Shown here: positions 1,833 to 58,152 of the stretch, piece by piece
How the letters are laid out: the number at the start of each line of letters is the position of its first letter
Position numbering within the stretch: position 1 is the first letter of the stretch
Assembly: GCA_001443395.1 (NCBI GenBank)
Contig: LDXK01000001.1
Coordinates: 32,001 to 96,000 of the forward strand
Reading direction: 5' to 3'
From: a candidate division WWE3 bacterium CSP1-7
GTDB taxonomy: Bacteria > Patescibacteriota > WWE3 > 9FT-COMBO-53-11
Length of the DNA stretch: 64,000 bases
Made by a program: the position numbers and the translations under genes
Notes under the pieces: generated by a model
Seen by the model: the letters and a program-made list of their open reading frames with translations, nothing else
The model's database searches: none
Told to the model about the DNA's origin: nothing

Positions 1833-2843
1833 TTAAATAATCTCCTGCTTAAGTTCGGCCTCGATGAAAGAATCGAGTTCTCCGTCCAAAACAGAATCCG
1901 GATCCTTGGATTCAAAACCGGTGCGGAGATCCTTTACCTGCTTGTAGGGATGGAGAACATAGGAACGGATCTGGTTTCCCCAGCCGGGAGTGAGATACTC
2001 GCCGCGAAGCTGGGCTTCTTTCTGGCGGCGCTCTTCCTCCACCCGCGCAAACAGTTTTGCCTTGAGCAGTTTGAGCGCGATTTCCTTGTTTTTGGCCTGG
2101 TGCCGCTCGACCTGGCAGGTGACCACGATACCAGTTGGCTTGTGGCGAATCCGGACCGCAGTCTCCACCTTCTGGACATTCTGACCTCCCTTTCCGGAAG
2201 AGCGGAAAGTTCCTACTTCCAGGTCGTCATCCCGGATCTCGATCTCCGGGATCTCTTCCAAGAGCGGAATGACCTCCACCAGGGCGAAGGAGGTCTGGCG
2301 CAGATTCTGGGCGTTGAAAGGCGATTGGCGCACCAGCCGGTGGACGCCCGCCTCTCCTTTTAGGTAACCGAAGGCGAGGTTCCCCTTGATCTCAAAAGTC
2401 ACCGACTTGAATCCGGCTTCCTCCCCCGGGCTCTGCTCCAAAACAACCGTCTTCCAGCCCCGCCGCTCGGCGAGCCGCTGGTACATTCTCGCCAGCATCG
2501 CCACCCAATCCTGGGCTTCCGTTCCTCCCTGCCCCGAGTGGAGAGCGAGAATCGCATCGCTCTTGTCGTAGGGCGCGGACAGATAGGTTCTTAGCTCCAG
2601 CTTTCCCAGGAGTTCTTCCGCCATCTGGGACTCACCCACCTCGATCGCTAATTCCGTTTCTTCCACCTCGGCAATCTCCCGCTTTAGGTCGGCAATCTCC
2701 CGCATTACCTCTTGGGCCTTGAGATTGTCTTTCCAGAGGCCGGGGTGGGTAGACTGGGCTTCCAGGTCCCGCAGAACTCTCCTCTTCTCCTCAAAATCAA
2801 TTGTTTCTTTGATCTGTACTAAGCGTTTTTTAAGGTCATTCAT
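1833..2843 (-). CDS. prfB: Peptide chain release factor 2 (no programmed frameshift)
   Basis: SPF anticodon-mimic motif, GGQ motif, WGNQIRSYV. Confidence 0.96.
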
Positions 2844-2884
2844 TTTTATTTCTCTAAAAATGCTAGGTCGTTTCTTCGGCCGTC
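2841..2884 (+). mobile_element. Type A mini-cassette at clp-prfB junction
   Basis: CATTTTTA..TAAAAATG-CTA-GGTCG tttctt CGGCC-GTC|CATTTTTATTT; 11-bp duplication 2841-2851 and 2885-2895. Confidence 0.8.
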
Positions 2885-2889
2885 CATTT

Positions 2890-5876: not shown

Positions 5877-5934
5877 GACGGCTCGGTTAAAGCCGAACCT
5901 AGTTATCCAGCACTCTCAAGAAAGTGCTGGATAA
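5877..5934 (-). mobile_element. Type A mini-cassette at secA 3' end
   Basis: TTATCCAGCACT..AGTGCTGGATAA-CTA-GGTTCGGC ttta ACCGAGCC-GTC|TTACCAG. Confidence 0.8.
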
Positions 5935-25375: not shown

Positions 25376-25383
25376 GAAAAATG

Positions 25384-25426
25384 GACGGCCGCCTATGGCG
25401 ACCTAGCATTTTGAAGAAACAAAATG
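25384..25426 (-). mobile_element. Type A mini-cassette at ndh start
   Basis: CATTTTG..CAAAATG-CTA-GGTCGCC ata GGCGGCC-GTC|CATTTTT. Confidence 0.8.
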
Positions 25427-31918: not shown

Positions 31919-31957
31919 TGCAGAATAAGCTTAACTCAAAGGTTAACGATTTCAATG

Positions 31958-31997
31958 GACGGCTCGGCTATGCCGAACCTAGCATTCCGGAGGAATG
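31958..31997 (-). mobile_element. Type A mini-cassette in recJ 3' end (translated)
   Basis: CATTCC-tcc-GGAATG-CTA-GGTTCGGC ata GCCGAGCC-GTC|CATTGA. Confidence 0.8.
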
Positions 31998-36713: not shown

Positions 36714-36754
36714 CAATTTTTCTTAAAAATTGCTAGCCCGCTTAGGCGGGCGTC
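36714..36754 (+). mobile_element. Type A mini-cassette after DUF3048 stop
   Basis: CAATTTTT-ctt-AAAAATTG-CTA-GCCCGC ttag GCGGGC-GTC|CAATTA. Confidence 0.8.
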
Positions 36755-36757
36755 CAA

Positions 36758-38056: not shown

Positions 38057-38098
38057 GACGGCTTGGCTACGCCAAACCTAGCCTTAGCTTTGCTAAAG
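38057..38098 (-). mobile_element. Type A mini-cassette in promoter of 38106 gene
   Basis: CTTTAGC-aaa-GCTAAGG-CTA-GGTTTGGC gta GCCAAGCC-GTC|CTT. Confidence 0.75.
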
Positions 38099-42550: not shown

Positions 42551-43773
42551 TAGACTTGGGATTCAAACCGAGCTTCGCGGATCACGACCACCCTTACTCC
42601 TCCCGGTGTGACAACTTGATCCTTAATCCGCTTGCCGATCTCCTGGACCAACTGCGCCGAACGTTCATCGGAAACCTCCCCGGCCTTCACGATCACTCGA
42701 AGTTCCCGGCCGGCGGTAATCGCATAGGCATCATCAACTCCGGAAAAAGACTTGGCGATGTTTTCCAGGTCGGTCACTCGTTTGACGTACCCCTCAATAT
42801 CCTCGTAACGAGCTCCGGGACGGGAGCCGGAAATGGCATCGGCGATGTAAACCAATTCGGCTTCGATCGATTTCTTTTCCTCCCGGCCGTGGTGGGAAGC
42901 CGCCGCGTTGACCAGTTTTTCCGGAAATCCAAAACGTTCCAGAATCTTTCTGGTCAAGATGTCATGGGGCTCACCGGATTCGGAGGTTGCCACCTTGCCG
43001 ATGTCGTGAAAAAGAGCCGCGGCCTTAGCGAGCTCCACATCCGCCCCCACCTCCGCCGCCAGATAACTCACCAGCTTAACCATTTCCAGAGAGTGCTTCG
43101 CCAGATTTTGACCGTAGGAGGTCCGAAACTTGAACCGGCCTAAGAGCTCAACAATCCCGCCGGGCAGCCCTCCCAAGCCTGTTTCCAACGCCAGCTGTTC
43201 TCCTTCGCGGCGGATCTCGTGATCGATGTCACCTTTAACCGAGGAAACGACGGTTTCGATGTTCTCGGGCTGGAAGCGATCCTCCTTGATGAGCCGTTCC
43301 AGGGAGAGACGAGCGATGTGCCGGCGGACCGGGTCAAACGAGGAAATCCGCACCGCTTTCGGAGATTCCTCCAAGTCCAACTCCACTCCCGTCGCCCGTT
43401 CGAAAGCCCGGACGTTGCGGCCCTCCTTGCCGATGATTTTGCCCTTCCAATCTTCGGATGGAAGCTCCACCACCGAAACGGTAAATTCCGCCACGTAGGA
43501 AGTGGCAGCGTGCTCCATCGCAGAAACGAGAATGTCGCGGCTGCGATCCTCCGATTCCGCTTTGATCTGCTCCTCCACCTCAGCCATCCGCTGCGCTTTC
43601 TCATTCACCAACTCCTGGTCCAACTCCTTGAGAATCATCTTGCGCGCATCTTCCCGCGATAACGCGGCCGACTTCTCGAGCTCTTTCAGGTATTTTTCTT
43701 TCAGTTGTTCGACGGAGAGATTATCCGGAGACTCCGGACTTTCCGAAGGGTCTTTGATTTTTTTGTCTTTCAT
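42550..43773 (-). CDS. rny: Ribonuclease Y (no N-terminal TM helix)
   Basis: KH GKIIGKEGRN, RTSYGQN, HDIGK, DAISGSRPGAR. Confidence 0.93.
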   Translation of the reverse strand: MKDKKIKDPSESPESPDNLSVEQLKEKYLKELEKSAALSREDARKMILKELDQELVNEKAQRMAEVEEQIKAESEDRSRDILVSAMEHAATSYVAEFTVSVVELPSEDWKGKIIGKEGRNVRAFERATGVELDLEESPKAVRISSFDPVRRHIARLSLERLIKEDRFQPENIETVVSSVKGDIDHEIRREGEQLALETGLGGLPGGIVELLGRFKFRTSYGQNLAKHSLEMVKLVSYLAAEVGADVELAKAAALFHDIGKVATSESGEPHDILTRKILERFGFPEKLVNAAASHHGREEKKSIEAELVYIADAISGSRPGARYEDIEGYVKRVTDLENIAKSFSGVDDAYAITAGRELRVIVKAGEVSDERSAQLVQEIGKRIKDQVVTPGGVRVVVIREARFESQV

Positions 43774-43812
43774 TTTGGTTTACCAAAATGCTAGGGCGTT
43801 TCTGCGCCCGTC
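43771..43812 (+). mobile_element. Type A mini-cassette at rny start
   Basis: CATTTTGG-ttta-CCAAAATG-CTA-GGGCG tttctg CGCCC-GTC|CATTTTTT. Confidence 0.8.
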
Positions 43813-43838
43813 CATTTTTTTGCATCCTTCTTTGTAAA

Positions 43839-47223: not shown

Positions 47224-47315
47224 GACGCGACCTTGTCGCTAGAAATTTTGCGAAGCAAAATTTAACGGCCGCGGACGCATCCTAGCAGTATTCTTCGCTA
47301 ACGCTTCGAATACTG
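47224..47315 (-). mobile_element. Two tandem type A cassettes at rpsI 3' end
   Basis: Units 47264-47315 and 47224-47263; QYSKR* encoded twice. Confidence 0.85.
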
Positions 47316-47702
47316 TGGCCGCTTGCGGGCTTTCTTGAGGAAATATTTCTTTCTCTCTTTTTCGCGGGGGTTGCGAGTCATCAAGCCGGCATCGCGCAAT
47401 GGCTTGCGCAGGTCTCCATTGAAAAGGACGAGAGCTCGGGAAATTCCCAAGACGATAGCGTCCAATTGACCAACCTTACCTCCCCCCTCCGCCCGGGCAA
47501 CAAAGTAAAATTTATCTTCCGTTCCGGTCGCTCTGTAAGGCAAAACCAACTTGGCTTGGAAAGAATCAATCGGAAAATATTTAGAAACGGGGGTGCCGTT
47601 CACAGTTGATTCCCCTTTTCCGGCGAACAACCGGACCGTGGTGGTCGCTTCCTTCCTTCGGCCGATCGCTTGATAAAATTTTCCTTGCTTTTTTTCTGAC
47701 AT
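47298..47702 (-). CDS. rpsI: 30S protein S9
   Basis: GRRK, GGG..GQ, ERKK, PQYSKR. Confidence 0.97.
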   Translation of the reverse strand: MSEKKQGKFYQAIGRRKEATTTVRLFAGKGESTVNGTPVSKYFPIDSFQAKLVLPYRATGTEDKFYFVARAEGGGKVGQLDAIVLGISRALVLFNGDLRKPLRDAGLMTRNPREKERKKYFLKKARKRPQYSKR

Positions 47703-47745
47703 TTTATTTCTTTAAAATGCTAGGTTCGGCGTTAGCCGAGCCGTC
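47700..47745 (+). mobile_element. Type A mini-cassette at rplM-rpsI junction (translated as L13 tail)
   Basis: CATTTTA..TAAAATG-CTA-GGTTCGGC gtta GCCGAGCC-GTC|CATTTT. Confidence 0.8.
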
Positions 47746-48162
47746 CATTTTTACCTTACCGATCATCTCCCCTTCTTCCCCGGGGTACACGAATAGCCGG
47801 GTGATCATTCTACTGCCAAGTTTGTTCTTGGGCAGCATTCCCAACACCGCATGGCGGATAATCTCCTGCGGCCGCCGCTTCCTTAACTCTCCTAGATTCT
47901 CCGATTTTAATCCGCTCGGGTACCCGGAGTAGCGGAAGTAGCGCTTTTGGGTTTCTTTCTTGCCGGTTACCTCAATTCTGGCCGCATTTTTAACGACAAC
48001 GTAATCTCCCTGGTCGAGATAAGGAACCCAATCCGTTTTCTCCTTTCCAATTAGGAGTCGGGCAATTTTGGTCGCCAGGCGACCCAGGACCTGATCTTTG
48101 GCATCGAAGAGGTACCAACTTCGTTCGACTTTATCTTCACTTCGCTTTTGCGGTTTTGGCAT
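47704..48162 (-). CDS. rplM: 50S protein L13
   Basis: LGRLAT, GDYVVV.NA, YSGYPSGLK, GMLPKN. Confidence 0.96.
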   Translation of the reverse strand: MPKPQKRSEDKVERSWYLFDAKDQVLGRLATKIARLLIGKEKTDWVPYLDQGDYVVVKNAARIEVTGKKETQKRYFRYSGYPSGLKSENLGELRKRRPQEIIRHAVLGMLPKNKLGSRMITRLFVYPGEEGEMIGKVKMDGSANAEPSILKK

Positions 48163-49333: not shown

Positions 49334-49376
49334 GACGCCCGCCTCAGGCGGACTAGCTATCCGCTAACGCGAATAG
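49334..49376 (-). mobile_element. Type A mini-cassette at rpsD 3' end
   Basis: CTATTCGC-gtta-GCGGATAG-CTA-GTCCGCC tga GGCGGGC-GTC|CTATTCAAGATAA. Confidence 0.85.
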
Positions 49377-49945
49377 TATTCGATCACCATCTTCTCGTTG
49401 ACCTCGGGACCAATTTCTTCCCGAGCCGGAAAGGCGGCGATCCTGGCAATCATTTCCTTCTTGTCCACTTTTATCCAGGAAGGACGGATCACTTCATCGT
49501 AAATGATTGCACCTTTTTTAGCAAAGGTAATTTTATCACCAACCGCAACCAAAAGCGACGGGATCGTCACTCGCCTTCCATTCACCTTCACCAAACCGTG
49601 GGCCGCCATCTGTCGAGCGTGCGGACGAGTGCTGGCAAAACCGGCACGGTAGAGCACGTTGTCCAACCGCCGTTCCAAAAGCTGGAGCAAGACTTCCCCG
49701 GTTTTTTCTTTACTGCCAAGGGCATTCTTGAAATAGCGTTGGAACTGTCCTTCCCGAACCCCATAGATCCGTTTGGCCTTCTGTTTTTCGCGAAGCTGAA
49801 GACCATACTCGGAAAGGCGACGACGGAAAGCACCGTGCTGACCGGGAGCGGACATCCTCGTTTTGACCGGACAATTGTCGCGGCCGCAGAGCGGAACGCC
49901 TTCGCGCCGGCAGAGTTTGTGGGTGGGACCGGTGTATCTACCCAT
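49364..49945 (-). CDS. rpsD: 30S protein S4
   Basis: SEYGLQLREKQK, LERRLDN, IEYYSR. Confidence 0.97.
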   Translation of the reverse strand: MGRYTGPTHKLCRREGVPLCGRDNCPVKTRMSAPGQHGAFRRRLSEYGLQLREKQKAKRIYGVREGQFQRYFKNALGSKEKTGEVLLQLLERRLDNVLYRAGFASTRPHARQMAAHGLVKVNGRRVTIPSLLVAVGDKITFAKKGAIIYDEVIRPSWIKVDKKEMIARIAAFPAREEIGPEVNEKMVIEYYSR

Positions 49946-49982
49946 TTAAACGCGTCTCCTGTTCTTGGGACGGGGGCCATTG

Positions 49983-50101
49983 GACGGCTCGCCTGCGGCG
50001 AACCTAGCAATGTCCCGCTTACTGTCTCCGAACTGAAATTTTGTCATAGTATTTTCTTTATCCATTACACTCTTCGGCGGTTCTTTGGCCGCGGGCCATT
50101 G
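49983..50101 (-). mobile_element. Type A cassette with recoded rpsK 3' end
   Basis: [11 protein letters not shown] encoded twice (50065-50101, 49946-49982). Confidence 0.9.
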
Positions 50102-50436
50102 TGGGGGATCGGGGTCACATCGGTGATCGCTGTGACTTCCAGCCCACCAACTTTTAAGGCTTTGATCGCGGAATCGCGGCCGGGTCCCGGCCCCTTTACC
50201 AAAACAGAAACTTCTTTAACACCCAATTGACGGGCGGATTTCGCGATGGCCTCGGCGGCTTGAGAAGCGGCAAAGGGAGTCGCCTTTTTGGTTCCTTTAA
50301 AACCGGCCGTCCCCGCCGAGCCCCGCACGATCACTCCCCCGACCTCCTCCCCGATTGTAATCAACGTGTTGTTGAAAGTGCAGGTGATGTGGGCTACTGC
50401 TCTTTCCGGTATTTTGCGTTCTTTCTTTTTTGACAT
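50065..50436 (-). CDS. rpsK: 30S protein S11
   Basis: [28 protein letters not shown]. Confidence 0.97.
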
Positions 50437-50477
50437 TTTTTGTTTATTCAAAATGCTAGGTCGTTTCTTCGGCCGTC
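50434..50477 (+). mobile_element. Type A mini-cassette at rpsM-rpsK junction
   Basis: CATTTT..AAAATG-CTA-GGTCGTTTCTTCGGCC-GTC|CATTA; core identical to the 2841 and 57694 copies. Confidence 0.8.
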
Positions 50478-50479
50478 CA

Positions 50480-50884
50480 TTAGGTCTTTTCGGACTTCTT
50501 CGCCGCGATCGCGGACTTGCTCGTTCCGGCAATCGCCATCTTCCGACCTCTTCGGGTGCGGGCATTGGTCTTGGTTCTCTGCCCCCGCACCGGCAAACCC
50601 CGGGCGTGTCTCATTCCTCGATAGGACCCGATCTCTTGGAGACGCTTAATATTATTAGCCGTTTCGGCTGCCAGTTCTCCCTCCACCCGGTAACCGCTCT
50701 TCTGAATTACCTCCCTAATCTTACCAACCTGTTCCTCCGAGAGATCTTTGACACGGATCTCGGGTGACACTCCGGCTTCCGCGATAATTTTTTTGGCCAA
50801 AGTGGTACCGATCCCCCGGACGTAGGTGAGGGCCACCTCCACTCGCTTTTCAACCGGTAAATCAACTCCTTCAATTCTTGACAT
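50480..50884 (-). CDS. rpsM: 30S protein S13
   Basis: [29 protein letters not shown]. Confidence 0.97.
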
Positions 50885-50906
50885 TTTTATCTTTTAATCA
50901 TCCTTG

Positions 50907-51004
50907 GACTGTCCTCGCTAAAGCTCGGTTGGACGGTCGCCTTAGGTGACCTAGCAATCTCTCTACACTCGATTGTACAAACATAGTTCTTATAGTCATC
51001 CTTG
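50907..51004 (-). mobile_element. Stacked cassettes at rpmJ 3' end
   Basis: CAAGGATGA duplicated (50996-51004, 50898-50906); internal type A unit plus type C-like unit, each ending GTC|CAA. Confidence 0.75.
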
Positions 51005-51109
51005 TCTCTGTTTGTGCTTGGGATTCTTGCAAACGACGTAGAGACGCCCCTGGCGCTTAATAATCTTGCAATCTCTGCAAATTTTTTTAACTGATGCTCT
51101 AACTTTCAT
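50996..51109 (-). CDS. rpmJ: 50S protein L36
   Basis: Hand translation [37 protein letters not shown]. Confidence 0.96.
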
Positions 51110-51143
51110 TTTCTTTTGAAAGATAGCGATTTCTCATCGCGTC
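51103..51143 (+). mobile_element. Type A mini-cassette (ATA variant) at rpmJ start
   Basis: CTTTCA..TGAAAG-ATA-GCGAT ttctc ATCGC-GTC|CTTTCAT; ATGAAAG duplicated. Confidence 0.75.
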
Positions 51144-51155
51144 CTTTCATCGTTT

Positions 51156-51398
51156 CTATTTGCTTCGGTAAACAATTCTTCCCCGATTGGGATCGTAGGG
51201 GGATAACTCCACCCGAACCGAATCACCAAGAAGAACTTTGATGCGGTGGATGCGCATCTTCCCGGAAATATGAGCGAGAACCTCCCGGCCCTCCTCCAGC
51301 TCAACCCGAAAAAGAGCATCAGGCAGGGTTTCTTTGACAATCCCGCTCAGTTCCGCTCTTTCTTTCTTTCCAGAAGAGAAACCCTTTGTTTTTACCAT
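51156..51398 (-). CDS. infA: Translation initiation factor IF-1
   Basis: [25 protein letters not shown]. Confidence 0.96.
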
Positions 51399-51408
51399 AT
51401 CAATCCTG

Positions 51409-52191
51409 TTAGGTCAACCCGCTCGACTCACTTCGTTCGCTCAGGGTTAAGATTTCCGGTCCTTTTTCAGTTATTGCCACCGTGTGTTCAAAAAGACCGC
51501 TCAAGCTCTTATCGACGGTTTCCACCGTCCAGCCGTCGGCGGCGATCTGGAGATCTCGACCCCCCTCAGTATAAATCACCTCGACCGCCAACGCCATTCC
51601 TGCGGAAATTTGGGGATTTGGTCCCGCCATCACCAAGCAAGGAATCTGGGGATCCTCGTGCAGGTCTTTCCCTACTCCGTGTCCCACCAGCGTGTCCACC
51701 GGGGTGTAACCGGCGCCCTCGATACCTTTCTGAATGGCAGCGGAGATATCGAGAATGCGGTTGCCCTCCCGAGCTTCGGCAATTGCCTTCTTCAGCGCCT
51801 CTTCTCCGGCCCGAAGGAATTTGGTCTTGGCGCGCGGCGCTTTCTGTTCGTCGCCAATGTAGACCGTCCAGGAGGCGTCGGTGTTGAATCCTTGGTAGAA
51901 AGTCCCCAGGTCGACACTCAAAATATCTCCTTCCTTGAGTTTTTGAGAGGTGGGAATCCCATGGACAATTCCCTCGTTGACGTTCAGGCAGGTCGCAAAA
52001 TGGTAGCCCTTAACCCGCTCAAACGCCGGTGTCCCCCCGCCTTGAATGATCCCCTCCCGGGCAATCTTTTCCAAATCCAAAAGAGAGGTTCCCGGCCGGG
52101 CCTGCCGCAGCACATCCTGAAGAGCGGCGGCGGTGATGCGGCCACCCTCCCGCATAGCTTGGAAATCTTCCTTACTCTTTATCGTAATCAT
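51409..52191 (-). CDS. map: Methionine aminopeptidase type I
   Basis: [25 protein letters not shown]. Confidence 0.96.
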
Positions 52192-52226
52192 CAAAAATTC
52201 AACGGGGTGGTTGGGTATCCAAGAGA

Positions 52227-52493
52227 TTAAAGACCGGGGACTTTCATGTTCATCAACATCCCAGATAGTTTCTTGGAAACTTCCTTTTGCGATTCCTTTA
52301 TCGCTTTGTTGAAAGCCTTCTTGAGATCATCACGCTTCTCTCCGTCGACGGTAATCTCTTGGATCTCCTGGTCGCCTCGAATCCTAATTTGGATATCCCC
52401 TTCAGAAACGTCGACCACAATCTGCTCCATCTCGGACTTCATTTTCTGGCCCTGCTTCCGAAGCTCATTCAATTGTTTCATCTGTTCAAACAT
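52227..52493 (-). CDS. YbaB/EbfC nucleoid-associated protein
   Basis: MFEQMKQL..LRKQ..KM, I.IRGDQEI..I.VDG, AFNKAIK. Confidence 0.8.
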   Translation of the reverse strand: MFEQMKQLNELRKQGQKMKSEMEQIVVDVSEGDIQIRIRGDQEIQEITVDGEKRDDLKKAFNKAIKESQKEVSKKLSGMLMNMKVPGL

Positions 52494-52530
52494 GCTGTTT
52501 AACTATACCCTATCCCCTATACCCTGGTCT

Positions 52531-53793
52531 CTAGAGATACCCCTCATATTCCCGCACCGACAACTCCCCCTCCAGCTGGCGGAGAGTCTCCAGAACCACC
52601 GAAACCACAATTAGAATTCCGGTTCCCCCTAGCGCAAAAGCCGTTACCCCGGTGACCGCCGCCCCCACCGAAGGAAGAACGGCAACCAGTCCCAAAAAGA
52701 TGGCGCCGAAGAAAGTCGTCCGGGAGATGATTCGATCAATAAAATCCTTCGTTGCCATTCCCGGCCGGATACCAGGAATAAAACCGCCCCTCTTTTGCAA
52801 GTTTTCGGCCAAATCTTTTGTATTAAAAACCACTGCGGTATAGAAGAAAGTGAAAAGAAAGACCGAAACAAAATAGACCAGGTTATAGAATAAACCGTTC
52901 GGCGAGAAAAGCTTGATAATTTCGGCAGAAATAAGCTGAATCTGGGGGTTGGCCACCCCGCTCAAGTAACGCGCGATGGTCGGAGGAATCAAAACCAAAG
53001 AAACCGCAAAAATGATCGGGATCACTCCGGCTTGATTAATACGAAGCGGAAGAAAACTCTGGGCGCCGGCATTCGGTCCGCGGACCGCATACTGGATAGG
53101 AATCCGGCGAACGGCCTCATTGATCAGCACCACCGCGGCAAATAGACCCAGGAGGAGTGCCAGGAAGAGAAACAAGTTGGCTACCTGGCCCGCCGTCAAC
53201 GCCGTCAGAGACTGCGCCAGGGAGAGAGGGTAGCCGGCGGCAATTCCGACAAAAATCAGGAGGGAAATCCCATTTCCGATCCCCCGCTCGGTCAGGAGCT
53301 CACCCAACCACATCATAAAGAGTGATCCGGCGGAGAGCGCAAAAATCAGGGCCACAAGGGAGAGCGGTGATAGCGCCGTGACCACTCCCTGCTGGCGAAG
53401 CAGAAAAAAGAATCCGTAACCCTGCAGAATCGAAAGCGGCAGGGTAAGCAGCCGGGTGTATTGATTGATCTTCGCCTGACCCCATTCCCCCTCTTGAGAG
53501 AGCTCTTTAAGTTTGGGAAACCCAAAAGTCAGAAGCTGAAAAATAATGGAGGCGTTGATATAGGGAGCCAGTCCCAGAGAAACCACGGAAAAATTCTCCA
53601 TTGTTCCTCCCGAAAATGCGGAAAGAAGTCCGAGAAGAGCATTTCCAGCGAAGAGCTGACGAAGCTGAACGCGATCAACTCCCGGAAGAGGAACGTGGGC
53701 CAGGAACCGAAAGACGACAATTGCCAGAACCGTAAAAATTATCCGGTTCCGTAGTTCCTTTTGGTACCAAATTCGCTTTAAAGCTTCAATCAT
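52531..53793 (-). CDS. secY: Preprotein translocase SecY
   Basis: [40 protein letters not shown]. Confidence 0.97.
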
Positions 53794-57488: not shown

Positions 57489-57705
57489 TTTGTTTCTCTA
57501 CCAAAACTTCCTTCAGAATTTCTTTCTCACCCATAGCCGTCATCACCCGCGCCGCCTCCCGCCGTTTTTTGCTAATCGTGGAGGTGTCGGCCAAGGAACC
57601 GATCGCCCGCTTGCCGCGGAGCTGGGAAATCTCCGCCTGCGTCTCCGCCAAAACCTTGCGGAGCTCCTTCTCCTCTTTTTCGCGAAACTCTTTCATTTTG
57701 CTCAT
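57469..57705 (-). CDS. rpmC: 50S protein L29
   Basis: Position after rplP; RRE.ARV.T. Confidence 0.88.
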   Translation of the reverse strand: MSKMKEFREKEEKELRKVLAETQAEISQLRGKRAIGSLADTSTISKKRREAARVMTAMGEKEILKEVLVEKQNGKKKA

Positions 57706-57739
57706 TTTTTCAAAATGCTAGGTCGTTTCTTCGGCCGTC
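57694..57739 (+). mobile_element. Type A cassette with replacement rpmC 5' end
   Basis: Old ATG AGC CGT ATG (57740-57751) versus new ATG AGC AAA ATG (57694-57705). Confidence 0.8.
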
Positions 57740-57747
57740 CATACGGC

Positions 57748-58152
57748 TCATTTCTTGACAATCTTCGTGGCGAGAGGCAACTTGGCCGCCGCCAATTTTA
57801 GGGCCTTCTCGGAAAGCTCCGCGGGAACACCGGAAATCTCAAGCAGGATCCGTCCCGGTTTGATTTCGGCCGCGTAGTGGTCTACTGCCGATTTTCCTCC
57901 CCCCATCCGAATTTCCGCCGGCTTTTTGGAAACCGGTTTGTCGGGGAAGATCCTGATCCACAACTTTCCCCCTCTTTCCGTGTATCCCCGAATAACCTTT
58001 CGAGCCGCCTCAATGTGCCGGGAGGAAAGATTCCCTTTTGTCAGGGCTTGCAGACCGTATTCCCCAAAGGAGACCTCGCTGCCACGCCAGGCCTTGCCCT
58101 TGATCCGGCCGCGAAAACGTTTTCTGAATTTTGTCTTTTTTGGTAACAGCAT
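57748..58152 (-). CDS. rplP: 50S protein L16
   Basis: [26 protein letters not shown]. Confidence 0.97.

Follow-up and report, generated by a model that had tools for sequence, protein, structure and literature searches.

Repetitive extragenic palindromes (REPs) are described as palindromes of 20–50 nt that follow a conserved tetranucleotide, mostly GTAG, and the transposase TnpA-REP is reported to cut at CT or CA alongside them (PMC8266576). The Rickettsia palindromic elements RPE-4 and RPE-6 have been grouped with REPs tagged by CGTC (PMC3733652). For IS608, the target is chosen through base pairing with a guide located beside the hairpin (PMC5934647, PMC3201880), and translational bypass inserts of the T4 gene 60 type are short and encoded by a mobile element (bioRxiv 10.1101/2022.08.31.505936). 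The present work concerns a family of short hairpin elements in a 64,000-nt stretch (hereafter, the window) of the genome of candidate division WWE3 bacterium CSP1-7, which is designated G000 and represented by a 572-kb assembly in seven contigs (80% complete). The small genome and the listed sources of sequencing runs (groundwater, sediment, and soil) suggest a bacterium of the candidate-phyla-radiation type. The units of this family are insertions that follow a short word, end in the same word, and carry either a tail of their own or a duplicate of the gene end, and it is highly probable that they constitute an insertion element that rebuilds gene ends. Literature searches for an earlier description and for the mechanisms of REPs and IS608 returned neither an element that inserts after start codons and regenerates them nor palindromic repeats of such a build in bacteria belonging to the candidate phyla radiation; the terms "start codon", "target site", and "duplication" are absent from PMC3733652.

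Structure of the rplP–rpmC Unit and Its 22-mer Core

At the rplP–rpmC junction, the unit occupies positions 57694–57751 on the minus strand of the window. Two old ATG codons are present (57751–57749 and 57742–57740), the first of which overlaps the TGA stop of rplP, and they are followed by a 22-nt core (57739–57718) with GAC at its start and CTAG at its end. After the core come the segment X′ (CATTTTG, 57717–57711), an A-run, ATGAGCAAA, and the ATG of MKEFREKEE...; here, X denotes the word preceding an element, and X′ denotes the inverted copy of X after the hairpin core. The new ATG codons lie at 57705–57703 and 57696–57694, the latter being the native MKEF start, and the L29 profile begins at residue 6 of the MSKM... 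form of the rpmC product. The layout of an old ATG over the rplP stop, a core, and a new ATG is the one given in a preliminary description of the window, which had also reported an identical core at 2863, 50456, and 57718. These three were the only exact matches to the 22-mer in the window, and a copy with three mismatches was found at 43791, with zero matches in 100 dinucleotide-preserving shuffles.

Comparison was made with G001, G002, and G003, which belong to the same genus as G000, and with G004–G009, which represent six other genera of the family; the order holds one family only, with 10 genomes. The genome-wide count of the core proposed in the preliminary description was carried out with up to three mismatches and the reversed pattern as a control, and it gave 14 copies in G000 and none in the control. 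These copies occupy 11 sites, three of which are head-to-tail doublets with a spacing of 42 or 45 nt and a linker that is itself a hairpin. In G001, G002, and G003, 6, 14, and 12 copies were found, respectively, whereas the 22-mer was absent from all six other genera of the family and from 31 of 31 genomes of other families; an exact 24-mer was not found in viral contigs. Since the 22-mer was found in four species of one genus only, mostly at sites that are non-orthologous between species, the spread supposed in the preliminary description is supported, and the RNA fixed across distant relatives that would have refuted it is not.

The rplP–rpmC site is filled in G000 (one unit) and in G003 (two tandem units) and is empty in G002, G001, G004, and G007. 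In the empty site of G002, the closest relative (about 83% identical; assembly 83% complete), the rplP stop is followed by five bases and then by the ATG of MKEF....

Filled and Empty Sites

The flanks of the 22-mer-family sites of the relatives were mapped onto G000. Both flanks were placed for 18 sites, of which four were filled in G000, four held another hairpin element, eight were cleanly empty, and two were ambiguous. A second comparison used 42 metagenome contig stretches with the exact 24-mer, which represent 31 distinct contexts: three were filled in G000, 10 remained unmapped, and 18 corresponded to junctions without the 22-mer, namely, 11 without any element and seven with another hairpin element. 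Consequently, besides rplP–rpmC, 13 distinct clean pairs were obtained, eight from the relatives and five from the metagenome contigs; site L089, empty in G000, was left out of this number, its native start codon being ambiguous. In all 13 pairs, the filled allele reads start codon, unit, ATG, and second codon, and the empty allele reads start codon and second codon. The inserted unit is 40–46 nt long with ATG at its end, and the insertion boundary is ambiguous by the three repeated bases. It should be noted that a single gene start was struck by two subfamilies in separate populations (L084, L092). The claim of the preliminary description that cassettes displace the native start and supply a new one is thus borne out by the rplP–rpmC pattern and by 13 further sites.

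The prfB unit of G000 is nearly identical, tail included, to a unit at another site in G002, and at a recent insertion the ATG-type tail matches the local flank no further than the ATG. The arrangement is not an assembly artefact, because a contig from the independent run X18 covers positions 49937–53152 of the window with one difference.

Architecture and Distribution of the Family

The hairpin core represented by the 22-mer belongs to a single subfamily within a much larger family. With the strict motif TGGACG-N(8-24)-CTAGCA, scored against a control, 37 hits were found in G000 (control 1), and 18, 40, and 49 were found in G001, G002, and G003, respectively. In the other genera of the family the numbers were lower (G004, 13; G009, 17; G007, 7; G008, 4; G005, 2; G006, 1), and in other families of the class the motif was at control level. 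The family is therefore confined to one bacterial order.

In its own orientation, the element reads X, GAC-G, a variable hairpin, C-CTAG, X′, a spacer, and X. It adjoins the 3′ side of the host copy of X, usually NTG, and its own end is X; units of the common form measure 40–46 nt, and the longest reach about 120 nt. Among the 74 copies used for the statistics of architecture, the trinucleotide before GAC was ATG in 26 and TTG in 18. In 60 of 74 copies, compared with 10 of 74 controls, X′ pairs with the downstream X for 5 bp or more; for the 5′ flank, 3 bp or more pair with X′ in 41 of 74 copies, compared with 20% when the flanks were swapped among copies. In 24 of the 74, the second hairpin finishes in the start codon of an open reading frame (ORF) of at least 50 codons.

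Flanks and hairpins were evaluated in 52 copies (control, 10 hits). The flanking bases are conserved, G preceding GAC in 46 and following it in 50, and C preceding TAG in 50 and following it in 40. Measured from GAC through TAG, the hairpin module spans 19–29 nt, with 5–8 Watson–Crick pairs and a loop of 2–7 nt; a C·A mismatch at the third stem pair, which is a G·T pair on the opposite strand, occurs in 24 of 52 copies. A GTAG variant in place of CTAG was found in one of the 14 22-mer-family copies of G000 and in one copy of G002.

Nearly all members lie between crude ORF calls or at ORF ends, and among the G000 copies compared with such calls none was found in mid-gene. The preliminary description had overlooked that the 22-mer marks one subfamily, that members occur in both orientations, and that some are located in gene 3′ ends and one in a tRNA gene. 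The two termini of the unit (GAC... and ...AAAATG) do not form inverted repeats, and the flanking repeats vary from 3 to more than 40 nt. A classical MITE (miniature inverted-repeat transposable element) derived from a DDE transposase was rejected, there being no terminal inverted repeats and no target duplication of fixed length.

The lengths of the module bear on the possibility that the core encodes a conserved leader peptide controlling the downstream gene. Among members of the 22-mer subfamily, the frame that begins at the old ATG runs through the core without a stop, several variants of the core are synonymous, and the three doublets of G000 are spaced by 42 or 45 nt. Across the family, however, the 19–29-nt modules fall in all three phases, many copies have an in-frame TAG after 7–8 codons, the "synonymous" changes are equally compensatory changes of the stem, and the ATG is missing at two of the 11 G000 sites. 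Since the module lengths fall in all three frames, a leader peptide is extremely improbable and was rejected. A portable promoter, in which ATGGAC would act as the −35 box and TAGCAT as the −10 box of near-leaderless transcripts, is hardly more credible. The hexamers resemble sigma-70 boxes by eye alone; their spacer is only 15–16 nt, varies with hairpin length, and is itself the most conserved part, and the units lie in both orientations inside tight ribosomal-protein operons. This explanation was rejected on spacing and context, with no promoter scan behind the rejection.

Restoration of Gene Ends

Long direct repeats flank 13 of the 74 copies compared with 16 of 1457 mismatched controls. 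Members were also identified inside rpsK, rpmJ, a 150-codon ORF, and the tRNA-Asn gene, each with a duplicate of the interrupted gene end. The captured ends comprise the first 10–13 codons of rpmJ, the last 11 codons of rpsK, and nucleotides 1–18 of tRNA-Asn. Because the element brings the interrupted end with it, insertions in essential genes are harmless.

The rpsK 3′-end element (49946–50101, plus strand, opposite orientation, hairpin 49983–50007) is bordered by two copies of the last 11 codons and stop of rpsK, located at about 50066–50101 and 49946–49981. This double-end arrangement is shared with G007; a single C-terminal copy without an element is found in G002 and G003, and the rpsK junction of G004 is compact and without an element. 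The infA–rpmJ unit (51103–51150, minus strand) is placed after the ATGAAAG of rpmJ, which is repeated at 51109–51103, and its hairpin (51123–51143) closes in TAT and not in TAG. In G001, the element is located after codon 10 of rpmJ, and in G002 and G007 two serial elements each and three copies of the gene start are present, G002 having the G000-type infA–rpmJ element and a second one deeper in rpmJ. The rpmJ–rpsM element (50932–50975, plus strand, opposite orientation, TTG type) has a repeat of approximately 16 nt around the rpmJ stop on either side. In the tRNA-Asn gene, the element follows nucleotide 18, with an 18/18-nt duplicate of the 5′ part lying upstream and the complete tRNA downstream; this arrangement is present in all four species of the genus, and the tRNA is uninterrupted in G004 and G007.

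Integrative elements that enter tRNA genes restore the 3′ end of the gene and leave a displaced partial copy, and the copies may differ. The present elements resemble them in that a copy of the interrupted gene end keeps the target functional; they differ in a size of 40–120 nt, in having no integrase, and in that 5′ ends, 3′ ends, start codons, and the 5′ end of a tRNA are restored. Bypass inserts, to which the byps of yeast mitochondria belong, are similar as short mobile hairpin inserts located directly after a "take-off" word that is repeated at the end. Here, in contrast, the decoy ORF is stopped and a complete downstream copy with its own start or stop is available, so that hopping is not needed. 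Rickettsia palindromic elements and other MITEs are likewise short and palindromic, and in reduced genomes they can be located within genes. They differ from the elements described here in being in frame and adding peptide segments, or in having terminal inverted repeats or other tags, and gene-end replacement is not described for them.

Comparison of the four coding duplicates (rpsK of G000 and G007; rpmJ of G001 and G007) revealed that 29 of 30 differing codons were synonymous. For each duplicate, at most 0.5% of the random-substitution simulations were as low in amino acid changes (p ≤ 0.005). The three rpmJ starts of G007 have three different serine codons at one position. Because an unused copy in place would decay randomly, the element-borne end would have come from another lineage, or the element would cycle in and out, which would bring both copies under selection again and again; judged from the sequences, elements with captured ends may thus move between lineages or cycle in and out of a site. 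A counter-example is C1:165865 in G003, where several residues distinguish the old N-terminal peptide from the new one; the reading of this locus as a 40-nt duplication up to the insertion point was overturned by cross-species alignment.

Turnover is also evident from tandem units, of which two identical ones were found in G003 (L021) and three at C3:71328 in G000. At the rpsD–rpoA junction, where G000 has one unit, G003 has three identical 43-nt tandem units and a fourth with another hairpin (L055, antisense elements at 2091–2239 in minus-strand coordinates of the locus). In G009, positions 502–644 of L060 hold an array of 3.1 copies with a 46-nt period (hairpin and CAAC...GTTG tail) located 5′ of a GGAGG Shine–Dalgarno sequence. 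Tandem units are consistent with re-insertion after the regenerated X, that is, with self-targeting. At rpsM–rpsK, the hairpins of G000 and G002 differ and G003 has none, and the entire infA-to-rpsD stretch of G004 is compact, with no element throughout. As a separate observation, the rpmC–rpsQ junction of G001 (L040) contains CCTAG and a short palindromic tail with a terminal ATG but no hairpin; a full unit is present here in G003 and none in G000, and the G001 remnant resembles a decayed or partly deleted copy.

Decoy Reading Frames and a Possible Role in RNA

A short decoy ORF begins at the displaced start codon. Among 18 single copies of the ATG type, the old and new ATG are separated by 37–58 nt, falling in all three phases (8, 6, and 4 copies), and the in-frame decoy ORFs are often stopped by the TAG of CTAG. 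Such features may suggest that the elements are kept as cis-regulatory RNA, in which X′ would sequester the new start codon and Shine–Dalgarno region, the switch being opened when X′ pairs with the old start region or when ribosomes translate the decoy ORF. Such a translational switch or coupling device was put forward in the preliminary description, and both pairings of X′, with the old and with the new start region, could form on sequence grounds; we consider it rather improbable as the reason why the elements are kept. That X′ can pair for 5 bp or more with the new start region in 60 of 74 copies agrees with it, as do the decoy ORFs of the ATG type, 16 of 18 of which end ahead of the new ATG or overlap it, with all eight in-frame cases stopped. 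At C1:165865, a 14-bp pairing between X′ and the start is kept in G000, G002, and G003 through double-sided and wobble changes, and an RNA role may exist because this start-codon hairpin shows double-sided compensatory changes. Furthermore, a 39-codon ORF joins the rpsK stop (TAATG) to the rpsD start (TAAATG), and the same is found in G007.

At most sites, however, presence and absence vary among close species, and the same operon in G004 is free of elements. The target genes are functionally unrelated, and copies occur in both orientations, in a tRNA gene, and at 3′ ends. Folding of the sense RNA is weak for the common AU stems (z −1.7 to −2.2), in 24 of 52 copies the C·A mismatch of the sense strand corresponds to a G·U pair on the opposite one, and no Rfam family was matched at the gathering score, the search of the window returning three tRNAs only. 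Folding of the RNA of three units on both strands was also weak (z −1.1 to −3.7). A conserved riboswitch or leader was rejected on the lack of an Rfam match, the variation of sites between sister species, and the unrelated genes.

The 39-codon ORF occupies positions 49946–50065 of the window (minus strand), with its ATG over the rpsK stop, and runs through the element to a TAA abutting the rpsD ATG. Its 41-codon counterpart in G007 ends in the same 11 S11-like residues, preceded by an N-terminal part that is unrelated.

Proposed Mechanism of Insertion and Search for the Enzyme

On balance, the units are probably copies of a non-autonomous REP-like or IS200/IS605-like mobile element that regenerates gene ends. 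A HUH-type single-strand mechanism, proposed by analogy, is more tentative. A 43-nt unit is probably too short for a double-stranded circle, and a single-strand mechanism is suggested because the unit is short and lacks inverted ends and a target duplication of fixed length. According to this proposal, a HUH tyrosine enzyme provided in trans would recognize the hairpin with its GAC/CTAG flanks, and X′ would serve as a guide, pairing with the target X and with the element's own end. ATG-type members enter right after the start codon and regenerate the start together with an A-rich Shine–Dalgarno-like leader. Longer tails would result if a downstream X-like word were taken as the right end, by which flanking gene sequence would be captured.

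Several features are shared with REPs and the REP-associated tyrosine transposases (RAYTs). These are a GC-rich palindrome of 19–29 nt, dozens of mainly intergenic copies, a frequent conserved stem mismatch, and the presence of a RAYT-like gene in G000. A conserved tetranucleotide precedes the palindrome on one strand as well, but it reads CTAG, with GTAG rare. The CA and TG dinucleotides by the hairpin are comparable to the CT or CA at which TnpA-REP is described to cut (PMC8266576, PMC3733652). On the strand opposite the gene, the palindrome is preceded by the conserved tetranucleotide and has CA alongside; a guide-like stretch lies 5′ of the hairpin only if this strand is the active one. 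The elements differ from REPs in that each has a second hairpin formed from an inverted and a direct copy of the flank, and in their position at start codons and in gene ends, which they rebuild.

With IS200/IS605 elements, the family shares insertion just 3′ of a short word, the absence of terminal inverted repeats, the repetition of the word at the element end, and precise empty sites. The sequence adjacent to the hairpin is complementary to both copies of the word, which resembles the pairing of guide and cleavage site described for IS608 (PMC5934647, PMC3201880, PMC8266576). In contrast to these elements, one conserved hairpin is present (the second is AU-rich and unrelated) instead of a similar pair at both ends, only doublets having two alike; no copy contains a transposase gene, and no TnpB was found; the guide-like segments reach 14 nt; and gene ends are captured. 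The tag and palindrome would thus, as far as the sequences can tell, fit the REP kind, whereas the REPtron, inverted pairing, and paired end hairpins do not.

In G000, a single Y1_Tnp gene was identified (C1:146028–146672, 215 aa, 33 bits against a cut-off of 23), the nearest NCBIfam family of which is the REP-associated tyrosine transposase NF047646. As a side observation, the stretch C1:145874–146672 (1143–1941 of L037) contains two direct copies of a 22-nt word approximately 110 nt 5′ of this gene; each copy has a perfect 5-bp hairpin, and the word is unrelated to the element family and found nowhere else in G000. A tyrosine recombinase gene is located at C3:55532–56023, with an element (C3:55373–55398) about 130 nt beyond the matched stretch, and this proximity was judged to be due to chance.

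A number of results weigh against a REP-like or IS200/IS605-like element. The Y1 gene scored 56.9 bits, under the NF047646 cut-off of 80, and no element was found near it in G000 or at seven homologous loci of other genomes. Homologues of it were identified in 25 of 41 relatives, the majority of which are free of elements, and none was found in the 83% complete assembly of G002, which has 40 copies. No REPtron was found, the Y1 gene being unflanked by elements and its distribution not tracking theirs; as a mobilizer, the Y1/RAYT gene was rejected because neither a physical nor a phylogenetic link to the elements was found. TnpB was searched for and not found. The tag is CTAG and not GTAG, and copies are single or head-to-tail and not arranged in the inverted pairs known as BIMEs or REPINs. 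The strand bias shown by IS200/IS605 is not consistently present: in a small sample, most TTG-type copies occupy the plus strand of contig C1 but the minus strand of C2, at the same GC skew, and ATG-type copies follow gene orientation by necessity. Among the joints listed, from contigs of four runs, none skips an element; since contigs drop rare variants, such joints are uninformative on excision. Two further results concern sequence exchange. The tRNA-Asn hairpin of G002 and G001 is wholly different from that of G000 and G003, with the tail and both 18-mers kept, which points to an exchange process beyond simple transposition. At unique sites, X′ is a perfect complement of 8–14 nt of local sequence, and because X′ and the tail are locally derived there, a fixed guide borne by the element fails as an explanation.

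These last results would be expected if host replication or repair, with no dedicated transposase, produced the pattern of X, hairpin, X′, and X. A nascent strand would stall at the GC-rich hairpin, fold back, copy X into X′, re-align upstream, and recopy the gene end, and hairpins would be exchanged between loci by template switching at TGGACG and CTAGCA microhomologies. Such a host process is unlikely, but we treat it as a serious rival. Besides the local complementarity of X′, it would account for direct repeats of 3 to more than 40 nt, which are unlike a fixed target duplication, for the swapping of hairpins between sister species at one site with the tail kept, and for the failure to find an element-associated enzyme. 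However, ATG-type units travel with their own tail, which is near-identical at another locus and unmatched to the local flank beyond the ATG. The duplicates differ at many synonymous sites, including the serine codons AGT, TCT, and TCG, which duplication in place followed by decay cannot give, and GAC and CTAG are so strictly conserved as to suggest that a protein recognizes them.

It is also conceivable, although doubtful, that the family represents a new class of mobile DNA, namely, gene-end homing hairpins that carry captured gene ends between lineages. In that case, a 20-nt module with fixed GAC/CTAG flanks would integrate beside a word set by the adjacent complementary segment. The cargo would consist of start codons, N- or C-terminal codons, and the 5′ end of a tRNA, and the hairpin module would be swapped at fixed sites. 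Hairpins sequestering start codons would be installed incidentally, and the host may use them for control; the enzyme may differ from known REP or IS200 transposases. Such hairpins could live inside the essential genes of a minimal genome because captured gene ends are carried along.

Two other systems were considered and rejected. TIGR-Tas arrays (as described in PMC12045711), which are tandem arrays with box C/D-like motifs beside a Tas gene that has a Nop domain, do not agree with copies that are dispersed singles, and no Nop domain was found in the 80% complete G000 assembly. The conserved boxes do not fit integron attC or Xer-type sites.

Further Members in the Window

At each of the other sites named in the preliminary description (2841, 25384, 43771, 47700, 50434, and 51103), an element of the same build is present directly 5′ of a start codon. 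The gene names RF2, RNase Y, S9, S11, L36, and L29 were upheld; the gene called ndh could be assigned only to the general pyridine-nucleotide-disulfide oxidoreductase family. The prfB unit (2841–2887, minus strand) has its exact core at 2863–2884 and an 11-nt direct repeat with a terminal ATG on either side, and the RF2 gene itself (1833–2843, minus strand) is an uninterrupted ORF of 336 codons from the regenerated ATG. The rpsM–rpsK unit (50434–50480, minus strand) has an exact core at 50456–50477, and its tail closes with the rpsK ATG at 50436–50434. In the rny unit (43771–43815, minus strand), the core (43791–43812) has three changes with stem pairing kept, and two units are present at this site in G001 (L029). 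The rpsI unit (47700–47748, minus strand) combines another hairpin (47720–47745) with the same CATTTT...AAAATG tail, and the unit 5′ of the oxidoreductase gene (25381–25426, plus strand) has its hairpin at 25384–25406.

The remaining members are the rpsD–rpoA element (49334–49376, plus strand, opposite orientation, X = TAG); a doublet at 47224–47290 (plus strand) with a hairpin at 47224–47242, a linker hairpin, and a second core with an AAC start (L027 junction); a TTG-type unit at 36714–36757 (minus strand) located 5′ of a GGAGG Shine–Dalgarno sequence and ATG; an ATG-type unit at 31955–31997 (plus strand) with the tail CATTCCGGAGGAATG, antisense to the neighbouring genes; a unit with X = TAA at 5877–5934 (plus strand), in which the second hairpin has 12 bp; and a hairpin core with X = AAG at 38057–38081 (plus strand). 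Elsewhere in G000, near-identical units with a hairpin and a CAACCTCGCTGGTG... tail were found at C5:9072–9094 and C5:15816–15838. They lie in or next to ORFs of approximately 190 codons and may represent a repeated gene with an internal element.

Independent public-run contigs stop or switch locus at hairpin cores in the window (47716–47749, 50437–50479, and 57712–57752), and one loose contig end at 50438 matches the rplT site on contig C2. Repeats of this kind therefore break metagenome assemblies.

Significance of the Family

How REP-like palindromes spread is described as a question that is still open (PMC8266576). The present family provides many precise filled and empty pairs between close species, from which it can be read what inserts, where, and with what cargo. 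It represents a selfish element colonizing a very small, gene-dense genome, in which more than 10% of gene junctions, including those of ribosomal-protein operons, are occupied, and this occurs without gene breakage because the element replaces the interrupted start codon or gene end. For annotation, decoy starts, short upstream ORFs, and duplicated gene ends will mislead gene callers, and assemblies will be broken. If the complementary segment directs integration, the family would constitute a natural series of re-targeted single-strand insertion elements.

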